Positions 29,250-63,719 of a DNA stretch of 64,000 nt are shown here, one piece after another. The stretch spans positions 19,075 through 83,074 of the forward strand of contig CAXHJY010001255.1 of NCBI GenBank assembly GCA_964016885.1, written 5' to 3'. The notes beneath the pieces were generated by a model. The model was not told where the DNA came from. It ran no database searches and saw only the letters and a list, made by a program, of their open reading frames with translations. This DNA comes from Eledone cirrhosa. Lineage: Eukaryota. The position numbers and the translations under genes are program-made. The first letter of the stretch is position 1, and each line of letters opens with the position of its first letter.

Positions 29250-31605
29250 ATTAATCTTTTGTCTGCTTACTGAAAAGAGATAAGCTCCTAATAAGTAGCA
29301 CAGAAATGAACACAACCACAAGGATATGGGCCAAACGTGGAAGAGCCGAACTCCCACTGTCATTGCCTCCATCTCTGTATGGTGAGAAAATGGGGTCCCA
29401 CGTGCTAGCCTCCCCTCAGCCCTGGCAAACAGAATGGAGAAGGCGTTTCCCTGGAGGAGGGTAAGGGAGATGCACTGAAAGAGCCATTCTAACTCGCGAG
29501 GCTCACACCTGCAGCTGGACAACTCAGCGCCTATGGTCGTGAGTAGGAAGGTATCCCTAGGGCCAAGGACACCAGAAGTCTCCACTGCCAAGGGCACAAC
29601 CACAAACCAGTCAGAGTGACCGATACTTGGAGAGTTTGGCCTCCTCAGTCCGACGTGCAGGAGAACCTGGGTTAGTTGCGGCTGGAGAAAGTGTCACTGC
29701 AAGTGGCATCCATGACGAGGGGTTTTCCACTGCAGAATGGGAAGATGGTCATGCTGTCCCCTCAGTCCAGCCCCATGAGGGCAGCATGGCGTAGAAGGCG
29801 GCTGGCACTGTGGTGACAGGAAAGCGGGTGGAGGCCGAAAGAGTCCATGGTGGATCCAGAGTGACATTTATGTGGCTCACAGGCCCGGAGACCAAGCCTC
29901 AGGGAAACGCCAATGCACAGGCCATTGTTATCCAGCTGCATGCCAGTGGAGAAGAAGGGTAAGGCATGGAGCCAGGCACCACCATGGGGTTTGGAGGCCA
30001 CACGAAAACAAGCAAGGCGGTGCTGGTCGAGCTGGCATATGAGCCTGTCTGAGGCCAGGTTGCACTGGATGGCATCCCAAATGCTTTAGGGAGACTTGAC
30101 GTCAGCAGGGGGAGAAAGAGGAGGGTTACTGGGCTAAGCCCCAGCCGGTCCCACGTCTCACAGGTGGCCTTACGTTCCTCAATCACAGACGGTTCCATTG
30201 TGTTTTGGAGAACTCTGCTAACGAGGACACGGAATGAGGTTACCGACGAAAGAAACACCGGCAAAGCCAGCGAGATCAGGGACCTGGAGGTGATTCCCGC
30301 CAGGGCAGGAACCACCAATTGTAGGTCATGGCAGACAGTCTCTACAGGCCTACCTAACATAGTATCATCCAGGTACCAAACATTGAGAGGGGCTGTGATA
30401 CTCCGGGCAATGTGGTCTATACCAAGAGCAAACAGGAGGGGGTCCAAAGGGTCACCCTGTTGGACCCCAGTGGCCGAAGGTATGACCGTATCAGCAGCAA
30501 GGAGCATGCTTGGGGCTCCATATGACAGGTAGGCCAGCGGGTAGGCAGAGGGGGCTCGGCTGAGGCAGTCATCGAGCAGATGGTCCTGGCGTATACAGTT
30601 AAAGGCATTCCTCATGTCAAGCTTGACAATAAGGTGCCTGGAATCCCTGGATGCCAGTTCCAGTTGGCAGCTGTTGAAGAATTGCCTGGTTGCATGTGCG
30701 GCCCCCTCACAGCCACCGGACACGCCGACACCCAGTTGCACCAGACTGAGCACCTCACCCAGTTCAGGTGTGATGGATCTGCAGACCACCTTTGCAGCCA
30801 GCCTCTGGAAGACATTGCCCACAGCGATGGGGCGTATGTCACCTTCTTTCTTCCTGAGAGCAGTCAGGCTAGCCGAAAAAAAAAGAGGCCTCGGGCGTGA
30901 GGGTCCAGGGTGCCATGGATGAGCTTATTGGTGAGTGCCACAATTGCACTCAGAAGGCAGTGCCCAGCCTCAGCGGACAGGGGAGACAGCAACTCTTTGA
31001 GGTGGCCAGGTCGGAGACCATCAGCACCACCGCTGCTGCTAGCTGGGAAGGACTTGATGGCAGACATGATGTCTGCGTCAGAGGCCACAAGGAGCAAGTG
31101 GGGATCAGGTGGGGGTATGGGTCTGAGGTCAGTGGGTGGCTCAGGGTGTTTGAGTCGCAGGGCAGCCAGGACCTCCTTAGAGGATTGGAGGACAGTGTCC
31201 TCTGAGGCAACCATTCTGACATCTCCCATGATTAGTTTAGCGTTTATGCGGTCATGTAAACGCTTGGTGCTGACCTCAGGGGTGGAGGATTGAAGGCACC
31301 TGAGAGCAGGGGGTGTGGCATCCTTCGGCACGCTTGGATGAGCACTTGCCCAAAGGTCGAAACATTGGCCCTGACAAAGGCTGCTGTCGACAAGCCGACT
31401 TGGTCAGTGCCAGAGGGGCGAAATAAAAGAAGCGCTCCCAGTCGCTGGCTCGATTAGAGTCCAGAGCATTCAATTGAGAAAGCGAGGGCATCAGCTACCA
31501 GCACCCGGGTCGCTCTCGGGATCTTGAACGGAATCATCTGGAGCCGCCTGAGCTGAGCGATGTTGACCAGTGAGGCTTCGGCATCAGACAAGCTCACTGT
31601 CTCGG
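29250..31605 (-). mobile_element. Degenerate CRE-clade non-LTR retrotransposon (RT, zinc knuckle, restriction-like endonuclease)
   Basis: Motifs SSGGADGLRPGHL, IRPIAVGNVFQRL, QLGVGVSGGCE, LDMRNAFN, GVQQGDPL.PLLF, WYLDD, CHSGSTMDSFGLHPLSC..RH, VPLAVETSGVLG; clearly more GC-rich than its flanks. Confidence 0.8.
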
Positions 31606-32585: not shown

Positions 32586-32724
32586 TTATTTATAAAATGA
32601 GGACTGTATGCCTAATTATTAAAACACCTAAGAAGCCTCTTATGTGATGCAACCTTGTCTGAACTATAACAATAATAAAAATAACTATATATACACACAC
32701 AGACATATATACATGTACATCTGT

Positions 32725-32794
<70 letters not shown>

Positions 32795-32795
<1 letters not shown>

Positions 32796-33365
32796 GAATC
32801 AAAAGGCCTTAAAGTTAACTTGTCTAAGACTAAAGTTCTAGTATGTAGAAAGGAAAATAGGGCACAGGTACACCCTGGGAAATGGCCATGCCCAGTGTGT
32901 AAGAAAGGAGTAGGTAGAAGTTCCATTCTATGTCCCAAATGCAAACAATCAGTACATAAAAGATGTAGTGGGATCACAGGTAAGCTAACTAAGAACATAG
33001 ATTTTATATGTGGCCGATGCTCAGGTGCAATAAGTAACAAGAGCCCACAGGATACTAGCTCCTACTGTCCAGGTGGTTCTATAGAAATAGTGGACACTTT
33101 CTGTTACCTGGGTAGTGACAAAATAAGCAGTGGTGGAGGGTGCTCTGAAAGTACAATAGCCAAAGTTAGAACAGGATGGAAAAAGTACAGAGAGCTTATA
33201 CCACTATTGGCCTCAAAAGGTTTCCCTCTAAAAATGAAAGGCAGATTGTATGATGCCTGCATACGAACAGCAATGCTACATGGCAGTGAGACGTTGACAT
33301 TGTCTGCAAAGGACTTGCGCAGACTGGAAAGGAACGAAGGATGCATGCTCCGTTGAATGTGATGA
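32795..33365 (+). mobile_element. RTE RT C-terminal fragment embedded in microsatellite
   Basis: ORF 32820-33356 with KTKVL, PHD cluster, FCYLG and LHGSET. Confidence 0.9.
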
Positions 33366-34199: not shown

Positions 34200-35450
34200 G
34201 GAGGAGTAGAGAGGGCCCATGAGTCCAGTAAGACATCCTCTCTAGTGCTGGTGGTACAAATAAAAGCACCCAGTCCATGCTGTAAAGTGGCGCTGGTGTT
34301 AGGAAGGGCATCCAACCAGTGTATCAATGCCAAAACAATTGCAAGCACAGCAACAAGTAAATAAGAACAACAAAAATATGAAGACGTCGCATCTTAGAGT
34401 TGCAACACAATGTTGCCACTCTCACAGGTAAATCTGGTGAAATAGCGGAGATGCTGGAGAGAAGGCATGTGGATGTGTGCTGCGTGCAAGAGGTGAGATG
34501 GAGAGGTGCCTCTGCAAGACTAGTGACAGGCAAACATCTTAGCTATAAGCTTTTCTGGGTAGGTAAGGATGATGGGTTAGGGGGAGTAGGCATTTTCTTG
34601 GCTGAGAGATGGATCAATAAGACAATAGAGGTAGTTCGAGCTAATAATCGAATAATTAAGCTTAGATTAGTTGTAGGCAGGAGACTACTGACAATCATCT
34701 CTGCCTATGCTCCCCAAGCAGGCCTAGGCAAAGAAGAGAAAGACTGCTTTTACGAGCAACTTTTACAAACAACCGCAATGACAGAGGACGGAGACATCGT
34801 TATGCTAGCAGGGGACTTCAATGGTCATGTTGGACAGCTCCAGGATGGTTACACTGGGGTACATGGTGGGCACGGTTACGGCTCAAGAAATGAAGGAGTG
34901 AGAGTCCTTGAATTTTGTGATGCAAGTACAGTGACTATTTGCAACACTAACTTCCAGAAACCTGCCAACCACCTAATAACCTACAAATCAGGCAAGCACA
35001 TAAGCCAGATTGACTCCTTACTAGTTAGGCAGCGGGACAGTAAGATGGGTGTCATATACCAAGGCATACCCTGGGAAAGAACGTACCCCACAGCATAAGC
35101 TAGTCGTTAGTGATATCTCAGTAAGCAACAGATGGAATGAGACATACAGGAAGGTGTGGAGAAGAAAGGTCTGGAAGCTAAAAGACCTTTCACTAAAATA
35201 CAAATTTAGGAAAGCCCTTCAAGATGTGTATGATGAAAAAGAAGACGATTTAGAGATGTATGGCATAGATAATAAACTGGAATTTCTTACGTGACAACTT
35301 ACTGCAGGCTACTGATGAAACTTGTGCCTGGAGCAGAGCTCCAACCAGACAGAGAGTGACCTGGTGGTGGAACAGCACAGTAGATAAGGCCATTAGAGAC
35401 AAAAGAATAGCATGGAAGGCTTGAAAAAAGGGTGGGAGTAGAGAAGGATA
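34200..35450 (+). mobile_element. RTE LINE 5' portion encoding an AP-endonuclease
   Basis: ORF 34400-35098 with NVATLTGK, CVQEVRW, GGVG, SAYAPQ, GDFNGHVG, SQID; truncated at (TA)n near 35450. Confidence 0.9.
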
Positions 35451-36064: not shown

Positions 36065-39008
36065 TCATCATCATCATCAACGTTTAACGTCCGTGTTCCA
36101 CGCTTGCATGGGTTTGGACGGGGGCAGTCCCACTTGAGGCAAGAGTAATTGTCTTGCTCGCATAGGACTGTCTGGCAGGTTTTCTACAGTTGGATGCCCT
36201 TCCTAACACCAACCACATTTACAGTGTGGGTCTGGGAGGTTTTTACTGTGTTGCCTACACGGCCACATTACAGCGTGGACTGTGTGTTTTTTTGTCGTGA
36301 CACCTACACGATCTCATTTGTTTCGGCCTGGATGGCGCGGCACCAACATAACTTTACATAGAACGGGGTGGTGTGGATGGGGTGGGGGTGGTGGCGGGAC
36401 GGGGTGTATTTTGTTAGAGATGCCTACTGGCAAGGCGGGTCTTCTCTGTTACTGAGTACCGCCAAAGGTCTCGGTCCAGTGACATTGTCTTGGAGAGGTG
36501 TAAGTGTGTGAGGTCGGAGTTTATCAGCTCGTCCCAGGTTTTTCTAGGTCTGCCTATTCCGTGGCTACCGTCTATCTTTATTGCCCTGCACTTTGTTATA
36601 CAGCTATCGACTTTCATGCGCATCACGTGTCCATACCAACGTAGCCTTCTCTCGAGTAAACAACATCTGATCCCTCTTATCTCTAATTTTTTCCTTAGTT
36701 CGTTTATGCTTTGCCGTTCACGTATATTACTGTTACACATCCAGCGGAGCATGCAAGCTTCGTTCCTCTCTAGTCTGCGTATATCCTCTGCACACAATGC
36801 CCAGGTCTCACTGCCATGCAACATTGCTGTTCGTATGCAGGCATCGTACAACCTGCCTTTCATTTTTAGGGAGAACCCTTTAGCAGCTAATAGTGGTATA
36901 AGCTCTCTGAACTTTTTCCAACCAGTTCTGACTCTAGCTACAGTACTTTCAGAGCACCCTCCCCCACTGCTGATTTTATCGCCCAGGTAACGGAAGCTGT
37001 CCACTATTTCTATAGAACCCTCTGCGCAATTGAAAGAGCTAGTATTTTGTGGGCACTTGCTGCTACTTATTGCACCAGAACACCGGCCACATGTAAAATC
37101 TATGTTCTTAGTTAGCTTACCTGTGATCCCACTACATCTTTTATGCACCCATACTTTGCATTTAGGACATAAAATGGAGTTTCTACCTACGCCTTTCCTA
37201 CACACCGAGCACGACCATTTCCCAGAAGGGACCGCCGCCTTGTTTTCTTTCCTACAAACTAGAACTTTGGTCTTAGCCAGGTTAATTTTAAGTCCTTTTG
37301 ACTCTAGGCCGTGCTTCCATGTTTGGAATTTCTTCTCTAGCTCGGCCATTGATTCCGCTATGAGTGTTAGGTCGTCTGCGTATAGGAGTTCCCATGGGCA
37401 GCCTGTCTTGAACTCCTCTGTTATAGCCTGAAGGGCAATAATATATAGTAGGGGGCTGAGAACAGAGCCCTGATGGATGCCAACTTTTACGCTAAACTCT
37501 TCACTATATTCGTTGTTAATTCTAACCTTGCTGACTGTTTATACATGGCTTGTATAGCCCTCACAAGCCATTCGTCAACACCTAGTTTTCTAAGAGACCA
37601 CCAGATAATGGAACGGGGGACTCTGTCGAAGGCTTTCTCCAAGTCGACAAAAGCTAAGTAGAGGGGTTTACCTTTAGCTAGGAACTTCTCCTGTAGTTGT
37701 CGTACTATGAAAAGAGCGTCTGTGGTACTTTTGCCTGACACAAACCCGAACTGCATTTCATCTAGGTCAATTCTCTCTCTGATTAGTTGCGCTATTACTT
37801 TTTCCGTGACCTTCATGACCTGGTCGATTAATTTAATGCCTCTATAGTTACTCCTATCTAGGGTGTCTCCTTTACCCTTATAACAGTTAACGATGATGCT
37901 GCTATGCCAGTCCTTCGGAACAACCCCATTCTGTACGACATGGTTAACTATGCGAGTGACCATGGTGTGTCCCACCGTGCCAGATGCCTTCAGCATCTCA
38001 GCAACTATTTCCGAAGGCCCAGCCGCCTTACCTGTCTTCATATCCTTGATTGCCTTACTTATTATACTCCCCTCGACTAACACTGCTGGTCCCTCTATTG
38101 GGTCGATATGGGGGAGACTGTCTTTCTCCCATTTATTCTCCTCATTTAGTAGCCTTTCATAGTGACACTTCCAAGCTACCTTCTTATCAGTGTCGGTGAT
38201 GGCATGTATGCCATCATCGTTAAGTACACACTTCTCCCCGACAATATCACGGTTTTCCTTGACGCATTGCCTAGCAATCCTGAACACCTCACGTTTTTGG
38301 TCATCGCGTTGTAGAACATGCTTGAACTTTCTTTCCTCAGCTTCCCTTCTTGCTAAGTACACTTCTCTCCTAGCTTCCCTCCTGGCCACTTGATAGTCTA
38401 CTCTACTTCCCCCATCCCGCCATACTTTCCAAGCCTGCCTTTTGGCCTTAATTGACCCCTCCACCTTACTGTTCCACCACCATGTTACTCTCCTCCTGCC
38501 TACAGGCCTGCTCCAGCCACAGACTTCGTCTGTCGCCAACAGCAGGTTTGCTTTCAGAAATTCCCACTGTCCCTCTATATTGTCCGACTCTAAATGTTCT
38601 TCCTTACTGTCGAAAGCATCAAGTAATATGTTCTGAAATTTATTTTTGGCTGTGGGGTCCTTTAGCTTCCATATTTTTCTCCTGAGGATAGTCCTCTTCT
38701 GCTGTCGAGTACGTCTCGTCCTGACTATGAGGTCGCTAATTATCAGTCTATATTGGGAGGTGCATTCTTCATGGGGGAGGGATTTAGTGTTTACAACAGA
38801 CACTCTGTCACGTCTTCTGGTAAGGATATAATCTACCTGGCTTGTGTGTTCCCCGGATTTATAGGTGATCAGGTGATTGTCACGTTTTTTGAAGTTAGTG
38901 TTACAGATAGTTAGGTTATTTGCATCACAGAATTCCAGGATTCTGGAGCCTTCCTCATTTCTAGTACCAAACCCATAGCCTCCATGGATTTCGTCGTAGC
39001 CGTCACAA
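36065..39008 (-). mobile_element. Young 5'-truncated RTE LINE: APE C-terminus, RT and PHD finger, one frameshift near 37535, 3' UTR and (ATG)n tail
   Basis: ORFs 37487-39008 and 36414-37349 with NYRGIKL, QFGF, DLEKAFDRVP, HQGSVLSP, YADDL, FRYLG, RRLRWYGHV. Confidence 0.95.
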
Positions 39009-39012
39009 TGTA

Positions 39013-39053
<41 letters not shown>

Positions 39054-39225
39054 ATATATATACATATATATATATATACATATACACTTACATATATATA
39101 TATATACATATATAACGGAAGAAATGTGGTAAGTAACCAGGTGGACCATAACGCACCAAAGTACTCAATATTTAGGGTAGTAGAGTGGGTAATAGAGTAG
39201 GACCCCTACGACCATATATGGAATT

Positions 39226-39321
39226 ACCCCTTGAGAAGCTCGGCTATTCAAATACCAGGATAAAAATTTTCCTTTACTCCAGAATTAGCCGTCGAAACGG
39301 CTTGAGCTCAGCTGTCGGGGT
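39226..39321 (+). ncRNA. Type I hammerhead ribozyme, U3:A8 core variant
   Basis: Stem I ACCCC/GGGGT; core TTGAGAA; stem II G..CGGCTA/TAGCCG..C; GAAA at 39294-39297; stem III ACGGCT/AGCTGT; GTC cleavage triplet at 39314-39316. Confidence 0.8.
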
Positions 39322-39334
39322 CCTACTCGTTCCT

Positions 39335-39343
39335 ATATACATA

Positions 39344-39398
<55 letters not shown>

Positions 39399-39686
39399 AC
39401 ATATACATACATATACATACATATATATACATATACATACATATACATATATATACATATATATATATACATATACATACATATATATACATACATATAC
39501 ATACATACATATACATAAATATACACATATACATACATATATATATACATATACATACATATACATACATATACATACATATATATACATAAATATACAC
39601 ATATATATATACATATATACATACATATACATACATATATATATATACATATACATACATATATATATATACATATATATATATAC

Positions 39687-39735
<49 letters not shown>

Positions 39736-40090
39736 CATATATATATATACATATATATATATACATATATATATATACATATATATATATACATATATAT
39801 ATATACATATATACATATACATATATACATATACATATATACATATATATATATACATATATATATATACATATATATATATACATATATATATATACAT
39901 ATATATATATATACATATATATATATACATATATAAATATATACATATATATATATATACATATATATATACATATATATATATATACATATATATATAT
40001 ACATATATATATATACATATATATATATACATATATATATATACATATATATATATATACATATATATATATACATATATAAATATATAC

Positions 40091-40121
<31 letters not shown>

Positions 40122-40134
40122 CATATATATATAC

Positions 40135-40167
<33 letters not shown>

Positions 40168-40446
40168 CATACATATATATATATACATATACATATATAC
40201 ATATATATATATACATATATATATATACATATATATATACATATATATATACATACATATATACATACATATATATATACATATATATATATATACATAT
40301 ATATATACATATATATATACATATACATATATATACATATATATATATATACATATATATATACATACATATATATATATACATATATATATATATACAT
40401 ATATATATATACATATATATATATACATATACATATATATATATAC

Positions 40447-40477
<31 letters not shown>

Positions 40478-40536
40478 CATATATATATATACATATATAT
40501 ATATACATATATATATATATACATATATATATATAC

Positions 40537-40567
<31 letters not shown>

Positions 40568-40828
40568 CATATACATATATATACATATATATATATACAT
40601 ATATACATATATATATATACATATATATATATACATATATATATATACATATATATATATACATATATATATATACATATATATATATACATATATATAT
40701 ATACATATATATATATACATATATACATATATATATACATATATATATATACATATATATATAAACATATATATATATACATATATATATATACATATAT
40801 ACATATATATATATATACATATATATAC

Positions 40829-40875
<47 letters not shown>

Positions 40876-40968
40876 CATATATATATATATACATATATAT
40901 ATATACATATATATATATATACACATATATATATATACATATATATATATACATATATATATATATAC

Positions 40969-41015
<47 letters not shown>

Positions 41016-41210
41016 CATATACATATATATATATACATATACATATATATATATACATATATATATATACATATATATATATACATATATATATACATAT
41101 ATATATATACATATATATATATACATATATATATATATACATATATATATATACATATATATATACATATATATATATACATATATATATATACATATAT
41201 ATATATATAC

Positions 41211-41291
<81 letters not shown>

Positions 41292-41344
41292 CATATATAT
41301 ATATACATATATATATACATATACATATATATATACATATACAT

Positions 41345-41378
<34 letters not shown>

Positions 41379-41392
41379 ACATATATATATTC

Positions 41393-41423
<31 letters not shown>

Positions 41424-41726
41424 TATATACATATACATATATATACATATATATACATATACATACATATATATATTCATATATATATATATATATACAT
41501 ATATATACATATACATATATATACATATACATACATATACATATATATACATATATATACATATACATATATATACATATATATACATATACATATATAT
41601 ACATATACATATATATACATATATATATACACACATATACATATATATACATATATATATACACACATATACATATATATACATATATATATACACACAT
41701 ATACATATATACACATATATATATAC

Positions 41727-41761
<35 letters not shown>

Positions 41762-41808
41762 CATACATATATATATACATATATATATATACATATACAT
41801 ATATATAC

Positions 41809-41839
<31 letters not shown>

Positions 41840-41948
41840 CATACATATATATACATATATATACATATACATATACATATATATACATATACATATACAT
41901 ATATATACATATATATATATATACATATGTATATATATATATATACAT
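39335..41948. repeat. ~2.6-kb (TA)n/(TACA) microsatellite array
   Basis: Direct reading of the sequence. Confidence 0.98.
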
Positions 41949-42620
41949 TTATTAAAATAACAGATTAAAGTTTAAGCAAAGAATCGCTGCTTTCACCCTT
42001 AACGGGATCTTCTGAAACTAACAAAGTCAATCTGTAAACGCAGAACTGGATATTTCAAAAAACGTTGCAACCGGAGCAAGACAGGAAGACGATACTTTGG
42101 TTCGTGGTAACGTTCGCTGGCAAAGAACGGGAAAAACCGAAAAAGAGGAGCGGTGAAAAACAATTACGCGCAAAAACAGAACCACGATTATGGTATAAAA
42201 GAGGTCGTAGACTAATGTTCTCTTAGGTGGTGCATAGAGACGTTCTCTGGCAATGAACGTAAAAACGAAGATAATAAGTCATATGTGGAGCGTGGAGAAC
42301 AATAGCACGCAAAGACAAAACCACGTAAATGGTATAGCAGAAGTCGTAGACTAAAATTCTAATTGGGAGACCAAATGAATCTCCGGTACAGAGTTAAGAA
42401 CAAAGTAAATAAATACAATACAGAAGTAATAGAAACAAATACGTACATACACAAGCATACGCAAAACCTTACCATAGGTATACAAAACCACGCACATATA
42501 GAATATGGTGTGTGTGTGTGTGTATGCTTGTGTACAAATAAATAAATAATTATATCAACGTTTTGCTCTACGGTTCTTATATATTTGATATATATTTTCC
42601 TTATCGAGCCCTCTTTGGAT
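41949..42620 (-). mobile_element. Complex island between arrays, probably a PLE terminal repeat, with a ~135-bp internal duplication
   Basis: Duplicated ACGTTC.CTGGCAA.GAACG and AACCACG...TGGTATA...GTCGTAGACTAA; minus-strand AATAAA at the array junction; degenerate HHR-like motifs. Confidence 0.4.
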
Positions 42621-47477
<4,857 letters not shown>

Positions 47478-47672
47478 AGATAAATCTACCAAGAGTTTAC
47501 GGTAGTGTCCAATCCGTATGAAGAACTCAATGTATTCCGGATATCATGGAAAGAAGAGATGTAATGAAAAATCACTTTCGGTGAAAGATAAACGGAATAC
47601 AGAGTCAAGATAAAATATTAAACAAATAATGAATAAAACAATGAAACAGTTCCTTATATTAAACAAAAAAAG

Positions 47673-47827
47673 TTCATTATTTAACGATCGTTTCTAGGAT
47701 ATATATGTGTTAGAATTGGCATGCATATTCAACAGATCTATGTACAAAATTATACAAAATTATACAAACTATCAAGATTAAATATACATACCAAACACAC
47801 ATATATGCCGTCTTCAGAAATAATGAA
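47673..47827 (-). ncRNA. Type I hammerhead ribozyme with an extended stem II
   Basis: Stem I TTCATTATTT/AAATAATGAA (10 bp); core CTGAAGA; stem II includes ATATATGTGT/ACACATATAT; GAAA; palindromic stem III ACGATCGT; GTT triplet. Confidence 0.7.
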
Positions 47828-48435
47828 ATATATTTATTGATAATAACAACAATTCAAAATTTCAGGTCCGTTTGGGAACGGAGTTCAAAATTGACCAATG
47901 AAAATACAAAAAGTTTTATGCAGTTTGGTGTGTGTATATACATGTAACTAACCCCGTACAGATATTTATACAAAGATATATGCTCAACATGCATACGCAT
48001 GCCAAAAAGATGTATGCAAATACAAAAATTCAAGGCTAATGTCTCTGTAAGTTTATAATCCACAGATAAAATGCGTATAGACACATAAATATGAAATAAG
48101 TGTATACACATATTCTCATACTCACACATATCCGTACACTCACACACACGCGCGCGTATATGCATAAACATACACATAATTACGAACATACATACACACA
48201 CACACCCCCACACACATATATATGTGGATATAATATTATCATAAGCACATGGATATTAATTCACTCACATAAACACTGCCACACACATTTAGATCAAGAT
48301 ACAGAAATTAGGTGGGAGGGGGGGAGAGGTCAGTATTCAACGGATTGGGCAGACTGCTTATTTATAGATGTATCTATAAACTTAGAAATAAAAGAAAAGA
48401 AAAGAAAAAGAAAAAGAAAAAAGAAATATATCAAG

Positions 48436-50882: not shown

Positions 50883-51402
50883 TACATACATACACATACA
50901 TATACATACATACATATACATATTTTTTCAAAAATTGCAAAGAATATATTAACTAGGTATACATCCAAAACACATCCCATTCTATGATTACATGACACTC
51001 TGCAATCCGTCTGTATTAGGATACTAATTTTAAGCCAATTAAATTAAATTTATAGGTTGACTAAATTTAAAACCAAATTATAAATATATTTCTAAAATGT
51101 ATATTAATTAGGTCTATAATACTAAAAATTATTTCTCTGTCATTGGATACACGATATTTTGTTATATTTTATCTGTAAAGGAATTTTAATAAAGGGTTAA
51201 ATAAATTAAAATTAATCTATAAATTAAATTACTAAGTATATATTAGTAATATTTAAAGGTTTTTCACAATTTATGATTACACAATATTTTATATTCTCAT
51301 CTGTAGTAGAATTTTAATTAAATTAAATTTATAGGTTAACTAACATTTAAATTAAATTATATATTAATTTCTAAAATAATGTTATTAATTAGGTTTATAA
51401 TA
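50465..51402. repeat. About six diverged 110-140-bp AT-rich repeats downstream of the Naiad ORF
   Basis: Recurring AAATT(T)ATAGGTTAACTAA...ATTAATTTCTA...TTAATTAGGT.TATAAT. Confidence 0.7.
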
Positions 51403-53650
51403 TTTAAATGTTTTTTTTAGTTTATGATTACACGATATAATTAATTCCTGTCGTTTATTTAATAGGATATCCTTAGATTTCATTATTTCAAATAGTTCTT
51501 GGGAACATAATCTACATTCATTTTTATTATTTTGATAAGGGGTGGCTCTTTTGAGCACACTCCAGGTCAAATCATATTCTATATTCTTATTTTTATAACT
51601 ATTGATTTTTTCTGCTAGAGATGTTGTATTAGCCAGTGCGGCATTTTTAAAACTATTCTTGTGGGTATTAAACCTTGTTTTAAAATTGTTAGAAGTAGCT
51701 CCTATATATGAGCAAATAGAATCTTTAGTTTTAACATTACATTTATAGACTATGTTGTTAACAAGACAATTCCCTTTTAATGGGCAGTTTGCTTTGTTTC
51801 TACAGTTACAACCTTTCGTTAATTCTGTATTTGAGGAGATATTATGGTTAATTTGATGTATTGGTGGTATACTTATGGTTTTCTTACATTTATATGCATT
51901 ATAGGCACTTATATTTTGTTTTATGTTATTTGTTGTTGAGTATGAGAATTTGACTGTTGACCTATTTAAGATTTGATGGTATTTGTGGTTTGGCGGGAAG
52001 TTTTTCTCTAGGATATAAAAAATTTTTTTAGCAATATTATCCTTAATTTGTAAATTAAATGGAGCATTATACCAAGTAACCCGTCTATTACGGTTTCTAT
52101 GTTGTTTATTATTTTTATTATTTTTATAGGTTGTATCGTGATGTTTACTAGGAGGATTAATGTTAATGATCTCACCACAACCATTTTTAGTTATATTTGT
52201 AGATTTAGGTGTTTTATCTTTTTTATTAGGAGTTTTATTATTAATATTTATTAGAGTTGTATGATGAGTAGTTTTTTGAGAGTTACTATATTTTATATTA
52301 GAAGATTTGGTATTTTGGGGTATAGTGTGGGTGGCATTTAGGTGTGTACTTTTCATTTGGTGTTTGTTGGTAATATTAGGTTGTATGCTTTTAGTATTTT
52401 TAGTAGAAGGTATATATTCTAATCTATTTTTGTGGCCACTTCTATCTAGAGCTTCGTTATAGAAGGTCGCATTTTTATCAAATACATCTTGGTTAGAAGA
52501 AAGGTTAGAAATTCTAAGTGATATATTATACGCAAGGTTTTTAAGGATAGATTTAGGGTGATTAGATTGTGAGTGTATGTAATGTAAGTTTTGGTTTGGT
52601 TTATGGTAAGGTTGGTAGATACCCGTAGCTAGATCTAAAGTTATATCTAGGAAATTTACTACTTTACTTGTTTTTTCAAAAGTAATATGAAGATTATAAT
52701 AGTCTTTAAGGAAAGTTCTAATATGTTTTTTGTTTTTTTCTATTTCTGAAAGGCTAAGGTTGTTAGAAAGAAGAAGACAGTCATCACGATATAAACCACC
52801 TTTAAGGTGGGGAAAGGAGGCATTTATGTTGAAAAGGAGAAAGAGGCCCACAAGATCAGTAATTTGGGCGGAATCGCTTGAACCCATAGTAATATCAAAT
52901 AGATTACTATATGTGTTTCTGGTCCAGTATTCATTCTGAAATTCAATAAGTGTTAGTCTAGCATGTGTAATAATATTAATGTCATCCAAAGTTAAGTTAG
53001 ATCTATTTTTAGCAAATATCAATGCTTTGTTCAGGAGTATAGGTGATATAGAAGAATAGTAATTATCTATATCAAATTGTAGAAATGAAGCAGAAGATTT
53101 ACATCTAATATTTTTAAACCAGTTAATTACCTGGGAGGTGTTTTCCCAGAGTGGTAAAATAACGTGTTTTCTTATTTGTGGGATGACTCTATCCAAAATT
53201 TTTTTGCTAATTATTCCAATATCTGATTTGGAGGGACATATAAGTCTTATAGAAGGATTTGAGTTAAAGTTTGATTTATGATCCTTCAGGTTGAAGTGTG
53301 GTCTTTTCAATGCCAAAGGTTCAGTTCTATCTTCAGTGTTTAATTTTTTTTACTATGTTGTGTGTTTTGTTGTTGATGTTGGTGAGTGACGCATTATTAG
53401 ATTTTTTATAATTTTTTCTGAGTTCTTTATATATGAACTCATTATAATGTTCAATATCCATGTGATACAAGTTACCAGTTTTGTCCGAGTGGACATGGAT
53501 TTTTTTAGACTTTTTTAGGTCCAATAGGGTAGAATCAAGGTCCTTTTGAAAGACGGATTTATACTTTTTAAATTTGAGGTGTTTAATTAAATTAAAAAGG
53601 TCTTTCTCGAAGTCTTCAAGTAAAAAGTTGTGTGGTGGATTCTTGTAAGA
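51385..53650 (-). CDS. Penelope-like (Naiad-type) reverse transcriptase / GIY-YIG endonuclease; single frameshift at 53344-53351; N-terminus missing
   Basis: Motifs [81 protein letters not shown]...H, C.LC..E, LNKR.E. Confidence 0.9.
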
Positions 53651-53655
53651 ATAAA

Positions 53656-55655
<2,000 letters not shown>

Positions 55656-55656
55656 A

Positions 55657-56906
55657 GTGGCGATGAATTAGTTTTGCGAGGTTTTTTTATATGAAATCGT
55701 GTGTCGAAACAGATATTGTTATACTTGGGGAAGCTTAGATAGGGCTAGACATAAGATAGGGAAGGCCACATCATGGTACGACAACCAGAGATATTAGAGT
55801 GTCATGTTTGTGGAGGGAAATTAGCTAACCAGTGTAGAAAGGCCCTGAGAAAGACCCACTTAAAAATAAAGGTGGTAGAAAAGCCAGGAACCACCATAAA
55901 ATCCCTGATCAGCAAAACCTACCCTTTTAAGAAAACCCACTGTACCAATAGGAAGTGTATCATATGTAAGGTGAACCCCCGGATAAACTGTAAAACTAGA
56001 AACGTAGTCTATAGCATAAGATGTACAGAGGGTACTTGCAGAAACATGACAACAACATAACATAGGTGAGACAGCTCGTAGCATAGGTGAAAGGATAGAC
56101 CAACACTGGGGGGAACTAAAAGGACGAAAAAACGGGTCAGTACTATACGAACATGCTAGACAACAACATGACGGTAACATAGACAACATAGAAATTAGAA
56201 TAATATCTAAACATAGGAATGACCCAGCAGATAGGCAAATCAGAGAGGCCAGTGAAATAGAAATTAGAAGACCAAAGCTAAACAGAAAGAATGAGTGGAA
56301 ACAACAACAACACCCAAACAAACAACACTGACCTAAGAGAAGTATAAATAAGTAAATAAAATTAAATAAAATAAGATAAATAAATACATACACAAGCACA
56401 ATAACAACAAGCACATAAACACACACTAGTCACCCCAGCAGACACAACACTATACACACTAGTCACACATCACACATAACACTATACACACACGCAAACG
56501 CATGCGCAAAGACAAAAAAAAAAAAATAAATAAATAAATAAAATAAGATAAACAAACAAGCAAATAAATAAATAAATATATAGACAGACTGAATAAAAAA
56601 TGGCGTAGGCATACAACACAACAGGAGGAACAATGAATATAACACCACTGACGATGTTGCAGATGTGCAACGAAAGATTTATGTAAATTATGTAAACTAT
56701 ATATATATATATATGTGTTTTGTGTCTATATTGTATCTGTATTATTTTTGACCGCCGGTCAGTCAATGGCAACATTGAGGACCGAGTAAGTTAGATCGCA
56801 GATATAATAAAAGACAGCGAGAAGCGAAAACCAACCAAACAGTGAGTGTGTTCTGTTATTAATTCTGGCAATATTACGCAAATATGACCCTCCCCAAGTA
56901 TAACAA
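55657..56906 (+). mobile_element. 5'-truncated Neptune-like PLE (GIY-YIG C-terminus and 3' UTR) with a short inverted terminal piece at 55657-55733
   Basis: Motifs WYDNQRY*SVMFV, IKVVEKPG, C..C..C, VVYSIRC, IGETARSIGER..H, RQIREA, LNRKNEW; HHR-like motif at 56645-56685. Confidence 0.85.
56645..56685 (+). ncRNA. Minimal hammerhead-like motif with a weak stem I
   Basis: CTGACGA-T-GTTGCA(GATG)TGCAAC-GAAA, at the same position in the pLTR as the HHR at 63720. Confidence 0.55.
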
Positions 56907-61640
<4,734 letters not shown>

Positions 61641-62435: not shown

Positions 62436-62480
62436 AGTCATAGTTCTTTCGTCACACACTCTGTGACCTCTTCAGTGACT
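62436..62480 (-). ncRNA. Minimal type I hammerhead ribozyme (inverted copy)
   Basis: Reverse complement of 63720-63764. Confidence 0.8.
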
Positions 62481-63719
62481 GGGGATTTCTTTCTTCGTTT
62501 CTGTGCCTTTCCTTTCTTCTATCCTACGCCATTTTGTGTGTGTGTGGGTTGCGTGCTCAGTTTGCGCATGCGCCACATCCGGGTGTCTGTGTGTTTGTGT
62601 TCATTTTTCTATTTATATTTGTTTGTTTATTTATTTATTTATTGTTGGTTGGTTGTTTGTTCTATGTGTGTGTGTGTTTTCATTTTGTCTTGTGTGTGTT
62701 TTCATTTTGTGTGTGTTTTCAATTGTAAGTTGTTTGTTCTATGTGTGTGTGTGTTTTCATTTTGTCCTTAATTGTAAGTTGTGATGTTGCTGTTCCACTC
62801 ATATTTTCTATTTAATTTTGGTTTTAATTCTTTTATGCTTACTGCCTCTGTAATTTGCCTAAACATTGCGTCTTTCTTGTGTGTGGATTCTATTTTTATT
62901 TCTATGCTCTCTAATTTACCAGAGTGTAATGTTCATCAATACAACCCCTAGAGGCGAACTAGCCTACAAATTTAGAAGGGCCCTAAAGAAACATAATCTC
63001 AATATTAAGATAGTAGAAAGACCTGGTACCTCCGTAAAAACACTTATTAGCAAGACATACCCGTTCCAAAGACCCTCATGTATAGATAAGAAATGTATAA
63101 CCTGTAAAATAAGCCCCCATATTAACTGTAAAACTAGAAATGTAGTATATAGCATAAGATGTACTGAGGGACAATGTAGAAACAAAAATATAGTGTACAT
63201 AGTGAGACAGCTCGTAGTATAGGGGAACGAATAAATGAACACTGGCGAGACCTCCAAGATAGAACACAGGGGTAAATTAGAGAGCATAGAAATAAAAATA
63301 GAATCCACACACAAGAAAGACGCAATGTTTAGGCAAATTACAGAGGCAGTAAGCATAAAAGAATTAAAACCAAAATTAAATAGAAAATGAGTGGAACAGC
63401 AACATCACAACTTACAATTAAGGACAAAATGAAAACACACACACACATAGAACAAACAACTTACAATTGAAAACACACACAAAATGAAAACACACACAAG
63501 ACAAAATGAAAACACACACACACATAGAACAAACAACCAACCAACAATAAATAAATAAATAAACAAACAAATATAAATAGAAAAATAGAAAAATGAACAC
63601 AAACACACACAGACACCCCGGATGTGGCGCATGCGCAAACTGAGCACGCAACCCACACACAAACAAAATGGCGTAGGATAGAAGAAAGGAAAGGCACAGA
63701 AACGAAGAAAGAAATCCCC

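Follow-up and report, generated by a model that had tools for sequence, protein, structure and literature searches.

The DNA analysed here, which we call the window, is a stretch of 64,000 nucleotides from Eledone cirrhosa. At 39113-39333 it holds a short island between AT-rich repeats. On its left lies a (TA/CA)n microsatellite (39010..39112, no strand assigned), the insertion target, and other copies of the family likewise end in (TA)n. On its right a (TA/TACA)n array (39334..41947, no strand assigned) opens with a TAT at 39334-36 that is common to element and target. The left part of the island, the inverted arm (39113..39209, minus strand), is the 'long end' of the element: it is 86.9% identical to the 3' end of the intact copy L091 on the opposite strand and was also compared with the tail of copy L024. 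It sets out near the GUC site and passes through GGGGTCCTACTC, which has a 5-bp deletion, and an ~80-nt tail to ...CCGTT and (TA)n; relative to the long end, its 97 bases are reverse-complemented and differ by this deletion and a few substitutions. The right part, the sense arm (about 39210..39333, plus strand), comprises the last ~123 nt of a pLTR, with 92-99% identity to other copies and 93.7% to both pLTRs of L091. It stops at the 'short end', 17 nt beyond the predicted cleavage site.

The sense arm carries a type I hammerhead motif (39226..39321, plus strand), recognized by its letters, by folding and by column conservation between subfamilies. Stem I is formed by 39226-30 (5' strand ACCCC) and 39317-21, and the core U3-U4-G5-A6-G7-A8-A9 (TTGAGAA) occupies 39231-37. 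G10.1 at 39238 pairs with C11.1 at 39293, stem II with 39241-46/39286-91, GAAA lies at 39294-97 and stem III (ACGGCT/AGCTGT) at 39297-302/39310-15; GTC at 39314-16 places the predicted cut after C17 at 39316. Stem II is imperfect, G10.1-C11.1 being followed by a 2x1 internal loop and then 6 bp, and its loop measures ~39 nt. Three stems surround the core, the structure is open at stem I, there is an NUH site, and U4 G5 A6, A9, G12 A13 A14, A15.1-U16.1 and G10.1-C11.1 are all present, as is a Watson-Crick pair (U3-A8) at positions 3 and 8. We treat the window copy as a hammerhead motif and do not call it a working ribozyme. With the motif already known, a relaxed type I descriptor was composed post hoc; the real window gave a single hit, while neither 300 shuffled 39-kb stretches nor 20,000 shuffled islands gave any. 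Rfam gave nothing at the gathering score for the island, and its 50 matches at E<=10 contained no hammerhead family, only TA-repeat noise; the long loop II and the variant core are the likely cause.

Two further features bear on the fold. GAGTAGGACCCC at 39195-206 is complementary to GGGGTCCTACTC at 39317-28, and this 'anti-stem-I' strand (39195..39206, minus strand) is an inverted copy of 39317-39328 by its letters and by comparison of the arms. The loop III region contains TGAGCTCA at 39303-10, of which the palindrome GAGCTC (39304..39309, plus strand) is kept across lineages and the outer T/A of the 8-mer is not: loop III reads TGAGCTCT in lineage D and GGAGCTCA in lineage E, sets that were fetched by patterns containing GAGCTC and therefore show presence, not unbiased conservation. 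An earlier sequence-only reading of the window had reported the motif with its U3-A8 core, stems and GUC site, the complementary 12-mers, the palindrome and the flanking (TA)n, and we found every one of them in the same place.

Other elements share the window. A second Hydra-type frame of a Penelope-like element (PLE) lies at 51388-53650 (minus strand), with 40-50% protein identity to the island's family; it has DKT, YRDD, CxCx5C, CxxC and CxH, is 5'-truncated at a (TA)n array, and its AT-rich downstream 1.2 kb showed no hammerhead core. At 55656-56442 and 62960-63399 (plus strand) lie GIY-YIG fragments with frameshifts; they belong to another type of PLE, which we take by its Cx4CxxC linker to be Neptune/Naiad-like, and the island at 62437-63399 is partly self-inverted. 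Pieces of an APE-endonuclease/RT LINE occupy 36417-39009 (minus strand), 32685-33353 and 34382-35095 (both plus strand), and the left (TA)n flank of our island adjoins the truncated 5' end of one of them. A GC-rich island at 29902-30924 (minus strand) holds a 341-codon RT-like frame of another non-LTR family. Very long (TA/TACA)n arrays with a GC content <0.1, a GC skew near -1 and repeat islands between them extend over 39334-48000 and 54000-61000.

A Penelope-like parent element

The island had been described as standing alone. A DNA search of the animal's own genome (3.0-Gb assembly) with the island as query returned 4,237 candidates, and the 40 that were scored gave 61 matches. Most scored matches cover 39210-39336 on one strand and continue directly with 39142-39210 on the other. 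The island is an insertion of a PLE family that has thousands of copies in the genome.

Followed upstream, copies of the family lead into a GIY-YIG frame; downstream, beyond the tail, they enter an RT frame. With the endonuclease part as query, a search gave 150 scored matches at 92-100% identity; the 12 with the longest open frames (L091-L102) have 736-859 codons, and all 12 carry U3-A8 and an A at position 10.2. L091 has a unit of 3,549 bp and an open frame of 790 codons, with 723 aa from the first Met, whose AUG lies 190 nt beyond the predicted cut. In all intact copies inspected the frame also stays open over 67 codons ahead of the first Met, from stem III across the tail (L091:3357-3557), and this may reflect a start that is non-AUG or spliced. 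At G000 C1:91473241-91487411, a candidate source locus, the youngest subfamily has five units head to tail at a spacing of 3,542-3,543 bp.

[quoted passage not shown] The full pLTR is 1.2 kb long, and upstream of the hammerhead the intact copies differ from the island. A Pfam search of the full ORF matched 0 families; the nearest Atlas clusters are animal proteins, part of whose members are annotated with HTH_animal, GIY-YIG and RVT_1 families. The L091 protein shows RWR, DKT, YRDD, CxCx5C, VIYQC..YIG, CxxC and CxH. Among these, DKT, the CxCX5C linker and CxxC plus CxH at the endonuclease end agree with the Hydra clade, as do the absence of GxKF/Y and the insertion into (TA)n; RWR stands at the matching N-terminal place where RWK is expected. 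The core (U3-A8 or C3·A8 instead of C3-G8) and the unit length (3.55 kb vs generally <3 kb) depart from the descriptions of that clade, and we therefore call the element 'Hydra-type', a variant. It is on its protein motifs that the parent is placed as a PLE of this type.

Among the earlier guesses at the nature of the island, 'solo pLTR' holds, and retrozyme-like does not, the island being an inverted 5'-truncated insertion of an autonomous PLE family. Non-LTR retrozymes are defined by a tandem repeat with a hammerhead in consecutive units (bioRxiv 10.64898/2026.07.22.740005; review PMC6765202), and the window has a single motif.

Ends and geometry of inverted insertions

The family has two fixed 3' ends, 17 and 97 nt beyond the GUC site. 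The short end stops at ...GTTCC followed by (TA)n; the long end continues for ~80 nt to ...CCGTT, again followed by (TA)n. Ordinary copies use them about equally (41 short, 39 long, 10 other; n=90). The 162 loci examined yielded 69 distinct inverted insertions whose two ends could both be seen, and 67 of these combined a short with a long end, two had long ends on both sides and none had two short ends. The 162 loci are not a random sample, some having been fetched for a listed +/- pair, which enriches inverted insertions but should not select short/long pairing. Inverted insertions of 300 bp or less made up 24 of the 69. At both ends a TAT is common to element and target (TTCC|TATT vs TTCC|TATA; TTCGT|TATC vs TTCGT|TATA), an overlap of 3 nt that could reflect AT-richness. 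In lineage E, an inverted arm lies within 110 nt for 101 of 131 arms.

Both arms belonged to the same subfamily class in 48 of 51 insertions; the three exceptions have non-standard end pairs, two of them long-long and one ending in a CT repeat. An origin of the arms from two different RNAs was considered and is not supported by these class counts.

We consider it highly probable that a PLE with Hydra-type motifs gave rise to the island, a self-inverted insertion truncated in both arms and likely produced by two primings on one RNA, and that the helix formed by its overlapping arms is predicted to lock the hammerhead off. In such a process the endonuclease would nick both strands of (TA)n, and each nicked 3' end would anneal to UAU at one of two internal sites and prime reverse transcription. 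Both cDNAs would stop early and then be joined 5' end to 5' end; in the island, the long-end cDNA would have been extended for only ~97 nt and the short-end cDNA for ~123 nt. PLEs are known to have copies that are inverted and 5'-truncated, to carry an optional tail at one of their ends and to target (TA)n (PMC8557442). In vitro work on Poseidon has shown that both strands are cut and that the tail is bounded by two internal RT start sites, and it reported priming at sites non-homologous to the target (Frangieh et al., PMC11167929). A literature search on Penelope-like elements, twin priming and inverted insertions returned nothing on the subject, as judged by titles and the beginnings of abstracts. 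Two traits are new or finer than published: the pairing of one short with one long end in inverted insertions, each joined to (TA)n via TAT, and a tail of ~80 nt as compared with the published 30-40 nt. The near-strict short/long pairing together with the TAT overlap offers a genomic constraint on how inverted PLE insertions and their tails are formed.

Where full-length units stand in tandem, the precursor RNA is likely cut by the hammerhead at a point 190 nt before the first AUG, and the ribozyme would probably help the element without being required. PMC8557442 calls the role of PLE hammerheads unclear, and hammerhead cleavage was dispensable in vitro according to PMC11167929. The window copy, having lost nearly all of the 1.2-kb pLTR, is most likely inert. 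The island is ordinary transposon debris.

Predicted folding and the ribozyme core

The minimum free energy structure of the island is a long helix, not the hammerhead (z = -1.86; 8 of 200 shuffles were equally good). In the window copy the active fold is hardly accessible: its predicted probability is 6e-9 with the inverted arm and 4e-4 without it, as compared with 0.18 in the youngest subfamily, where the hammerhead is itself the minimum free energy structure; these energies leave tertiary contacts and help from proteins out of account. A second competitor, overlooked by the sequence-only reading, is a family-wide hairpin (39287..39302, plus strand; AGCCGU-CGAA-ACGGCU) that by folding prediction would bury the GAAA of the core. 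Its predicted probability is 0.52-0.75 in the window copy (~0.75 without the upstream arm) and 0.25 in the youngest subfamily, and the model makes it the stronger intrinsic competitor. The perfect 12-bp helix between 39195-39206 and 39317-39328 is complementary letter by letter, is predicted to dominate the fold and is predicted to block self-cleavage of the window copy.

This helix had been proposed to be an evolved conformational switch, with the hammerhead of a small retrozyme-like RNA under the control of the 12-mer upstream. The helix does exist and is predicted to be dominant, and six further copies align with most or all of the island's length. However, the junctions vary among the look-alike islands L002-L007, contradicting a switch, and the 12-mer strand is an inverted copy of the element's own 3' end, the helix being the remnant of a ~25-bp overlap between the two arms. 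An antisense strand lies upstream of 79 of the 83 core-bearing arms inside inverted insertions because the geometry of inversion yields one. Intact pLTRs carry other sequence upstream of the ribozyme and lack the 12-mer strand. Within the helix strand, positions 39323, 39327 and 39328 vary between subfamilies; a penalty of 11.7 kcal/mol describes a lock, not a poised switch; and a tandem repeat unit is absent. We therefore regard a switch as barely credible: since the intact element does not have the helix, the comparison of copies makes the helix a by-product of inversion.

The ~200-bp inverted stubs could instead be mobile themselves, as MITE-like, non-autonomous elements. Their lengths do cluster (16 of 69 at 186-221 bp), two older lineages have 9,635 and 2,264 stem III-tail matches, and read depth over stem III-tail is far above that over the ORF. 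Against mobility, the internal junction differs in every stub inspected, as it would after independent truncations, and the clustering at ~190 bp may stem from reverse transcription stalling at stem II/III. Mobile stubs are thus very improbable, and a doubly truncated insertion remains our explanation of the island. The older lineages in L103-L132 and L163-L252 survive mostly as ~190-bp inverted stubs with junctions in or near loop II, which suggests that reverse transcription often stalls at the hammerhead structure.

The U3-A8 pair had been interpreted as a compensatory change from C3:G8, and a check for copies and covariation had been proposed. Copies exist in the thousands, and two-sided covariation at 3:8 does not: A8 is nearly fixed and position 3 alternates between U and C. 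Exact-context matches to the C10.2 subfamilies (arms, not insertions) numbered 1,145, namely 814 with C3·A8, which is no Watson-Crick pair, 308 with U3-A8, as in the window copy, 13 with another letter at position 3 (obtained by subtraction) and 10 with another letter at position 8, just two of the last being C3-G8. As general background, a G8A change alone inactivates hammerheads. The A10.2 subfamily gave 2,130 matches, with U3-A8 in all 100 of those listed. In the older lineage D (1,625 matches), A8 was counted by eye in 98 of the 100 matches listed; among these 100, N7 was A, C, U or G, and position 3 was U in 82 (one with G7) and C in 18 (16 with G7). Lineage E gave 2,264 stem III matches; the 5' half is kept by four of the 131 arms examined, two of which are legible, with U3 and A8 and a stem II of CAGCTA/TAGCTG, and the other two degraded. 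A pattern for C3-G8 relatives with a loop II of <=34 nt, which is unable to match the family's 39-nt loop, found none, and there was likewise no match to a pattern for a stem III variant with compensation.

Column majorities in core and stems differed between subfamilies at two of 43 positions vs 151 of 260 upstream, and at none of the 13 core columns between the four subfamilies, in a comparison where best-BLAST-hit assignment mixed some copies, gaps were counted and motif-less subfamilies could be missed. Within-group distance, taken from 66 of 144 copies, was largest for C3 (0.084), followed by the window's U3 group (0.069) and the A10.2 group (0.024). In the youngest subfamily, whose ORF is intact, the pair is U3-A8, folding is best and stem II has an extra A-U pair. 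IQ-TREE, run on 38 rows in which the classifying letters were masked, made the main C3 group a clade (96/95) nested among U3 lineages and rejected a single clade of all C3 rows, an outcome that hinges on one lineage-D row. FastTree placed the C3 copies as a basal grade. From these sequences U3-A8 is likely ancestral and C3·A8 derived. A path from U3 to C3 and back to U3 within one master lineage is not claimed, as the FastTree and IQ-TREE topologies disagree. Run X5, labelled as a second organism, comprised three small near-identical contigs of low depth and was excluded as an outgroup.

The family's hammerhead looks to be under selection, since conservation extends to its core and stems but not to N7 and loop II. 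Selection could also act on a motif that is catalytically dead and kept only as a structure bound by RT or protein, an explanation that concerns the family's ribozyme and is compatible with our reading of the island. The C3·A8 subfamily spread to 814 exact matches, the tail is conserved across lineages too, and hammerhead mutants were without effect on in vitro insertion (PMC11167929). One study mutated a type III hammerhead pair by pair and found the 3:8 pair rescued by the G-C swap alone (PMC9901934), an argument that U3-A8 and C3·A8 have low activity in that context. The pattern of change, however, is hammerhead-specific, N7 being free and A8 kept in nearly all lineage-D matches listed; the invariant core columns, the G-C to A-U swap in stem II of the two legible lineage-E copies, and the U3-A8 and added stem II pair of the youngest subfamily likewise speak against a dead motif. 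We consider it unlikely, though it deserves some weight.

A broader proposal combines several of these observations. The C3·A8 core would have arisen at least twice from U3-A8, both times with G7 and in one lineage with >800 matches; this would mean either that PLEs amplify well although their hammerhead is dead, or that the register is shifted so that C3 pairs with G7; and the inverted insertions would be obligate products of twin priming, with one cDNA per UAU site of a single RNA. As a whole we hold this to be distinctly improbable. A shifted register, if true, would amount to a new catalytic core that lacks N7 and has an extra A before G10.1. The existence of a derived C3·A8 subfamily with 814 exact matches beside a youngest subfamily with U3-A8 is new or finer than published; a literature search of incomplete coverage found no natural C3·A8 hammerhead lineage described, and the portions of PMC4209133 and PMC3088659 available to us contain no mention of one. 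The element has four natural subfamilies with different letters at positions 3, 7 and 10.2 and different predicted folding; their copy numbers and relative ages are known. They form a natural allelic series for asking whether PLEs need the ribozyme and whether the ribozyme helps them spread.

Comparison with known elements

In its short, non-coding nature, its type I hammerhead and its relation to PLEs the island resembles animal non-LTR retrozymes as described in bioRxiv 10.64898/2026.07.22.740005. Unlike them, it lacks tandem hammerhead units and derives, truncated and inverted, from an autonomous element.

In overall organization the Eledone family resembles the Hydra-clade PLEs of Craig et al. 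2021 (PMC8557442), such as Hydra-1_Amil, Hydra-1_Obim, Penelope-2_NV and Penelope-13_HM. It shares with them the single frame of RT and C-terminal GIY-YIG, DKT, the CxCx5C linker, CxxC/CxH, the (TA)n target and a type I hammerhead with a real stem III near the 3' end, and an inverted 5'-truncated copy has been noted for Penelope-13_HM. The differences lie in loop II (~39 nt vs 3-10 nt), unit length (3.55 kb vs generally <3 kb), RWR vs RWK, and the core: the Hydra-clade hammerhead rows in File S2 of that paper all read CTGANGA, that is C3-G8, whereas the Eledone family has U3-A8 or C3·A8. Compared by eye, none of the families listed in File S2 matches the Eledone hammerhead sequence.

The U3-A8 pair had been taken to be rare. 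It has been reported in natural hammerheads (Perreault et al. 2011, PMC3088659), and among PLE motifs of Schistosoma mansoni ~1,300 carry it (Cervera & de la Peña 2014, PMC4209133). As in the Cercyon PLEs of S. mansoni, the U3-A8 core lies in the pLTR, and single motifs from truncated copies prevail; opposite-strand pairs 100-700 bp apart and a palindromic loop 3 also recur there (PMC4209133). G10.1-C11.1 is common to the Eledone family and U3-A8 hammerheads (PMC4209133, PMC3088659). Unlike the minimal Cercyon hammerheads, the Eledone motif has a stable stem III of 6 bp that needs no dimerisation to form (PMC4209133); unlike natural U3-A8 hammerheads as these sources present them, it has no single extra base between A9 and G10.1 and has a 2x1 loop after G10.1.

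The insertion geometry can be compared with that of PAc, a Poseidon element from Anolis carolinensis (Frangieh et al. 2024, PMC11167929), which also has two internal RT start sites bounding a tail, cuts both strands of an AT-rich target and carries a hammerhead just upstream of the start sites. Cleavage by PAc was assisted by protein. Its tail measures 30-40 nt vs ~80 nt in the Eledone family, and its ORF starts inside the hammerhead, whereas the first AUG of the Eledone element lies 190 nt past the cut site. Priming is described as non-homologous in Poseidon PAc; in contrast, the Eledone family has a TAT common to the target at both ends.
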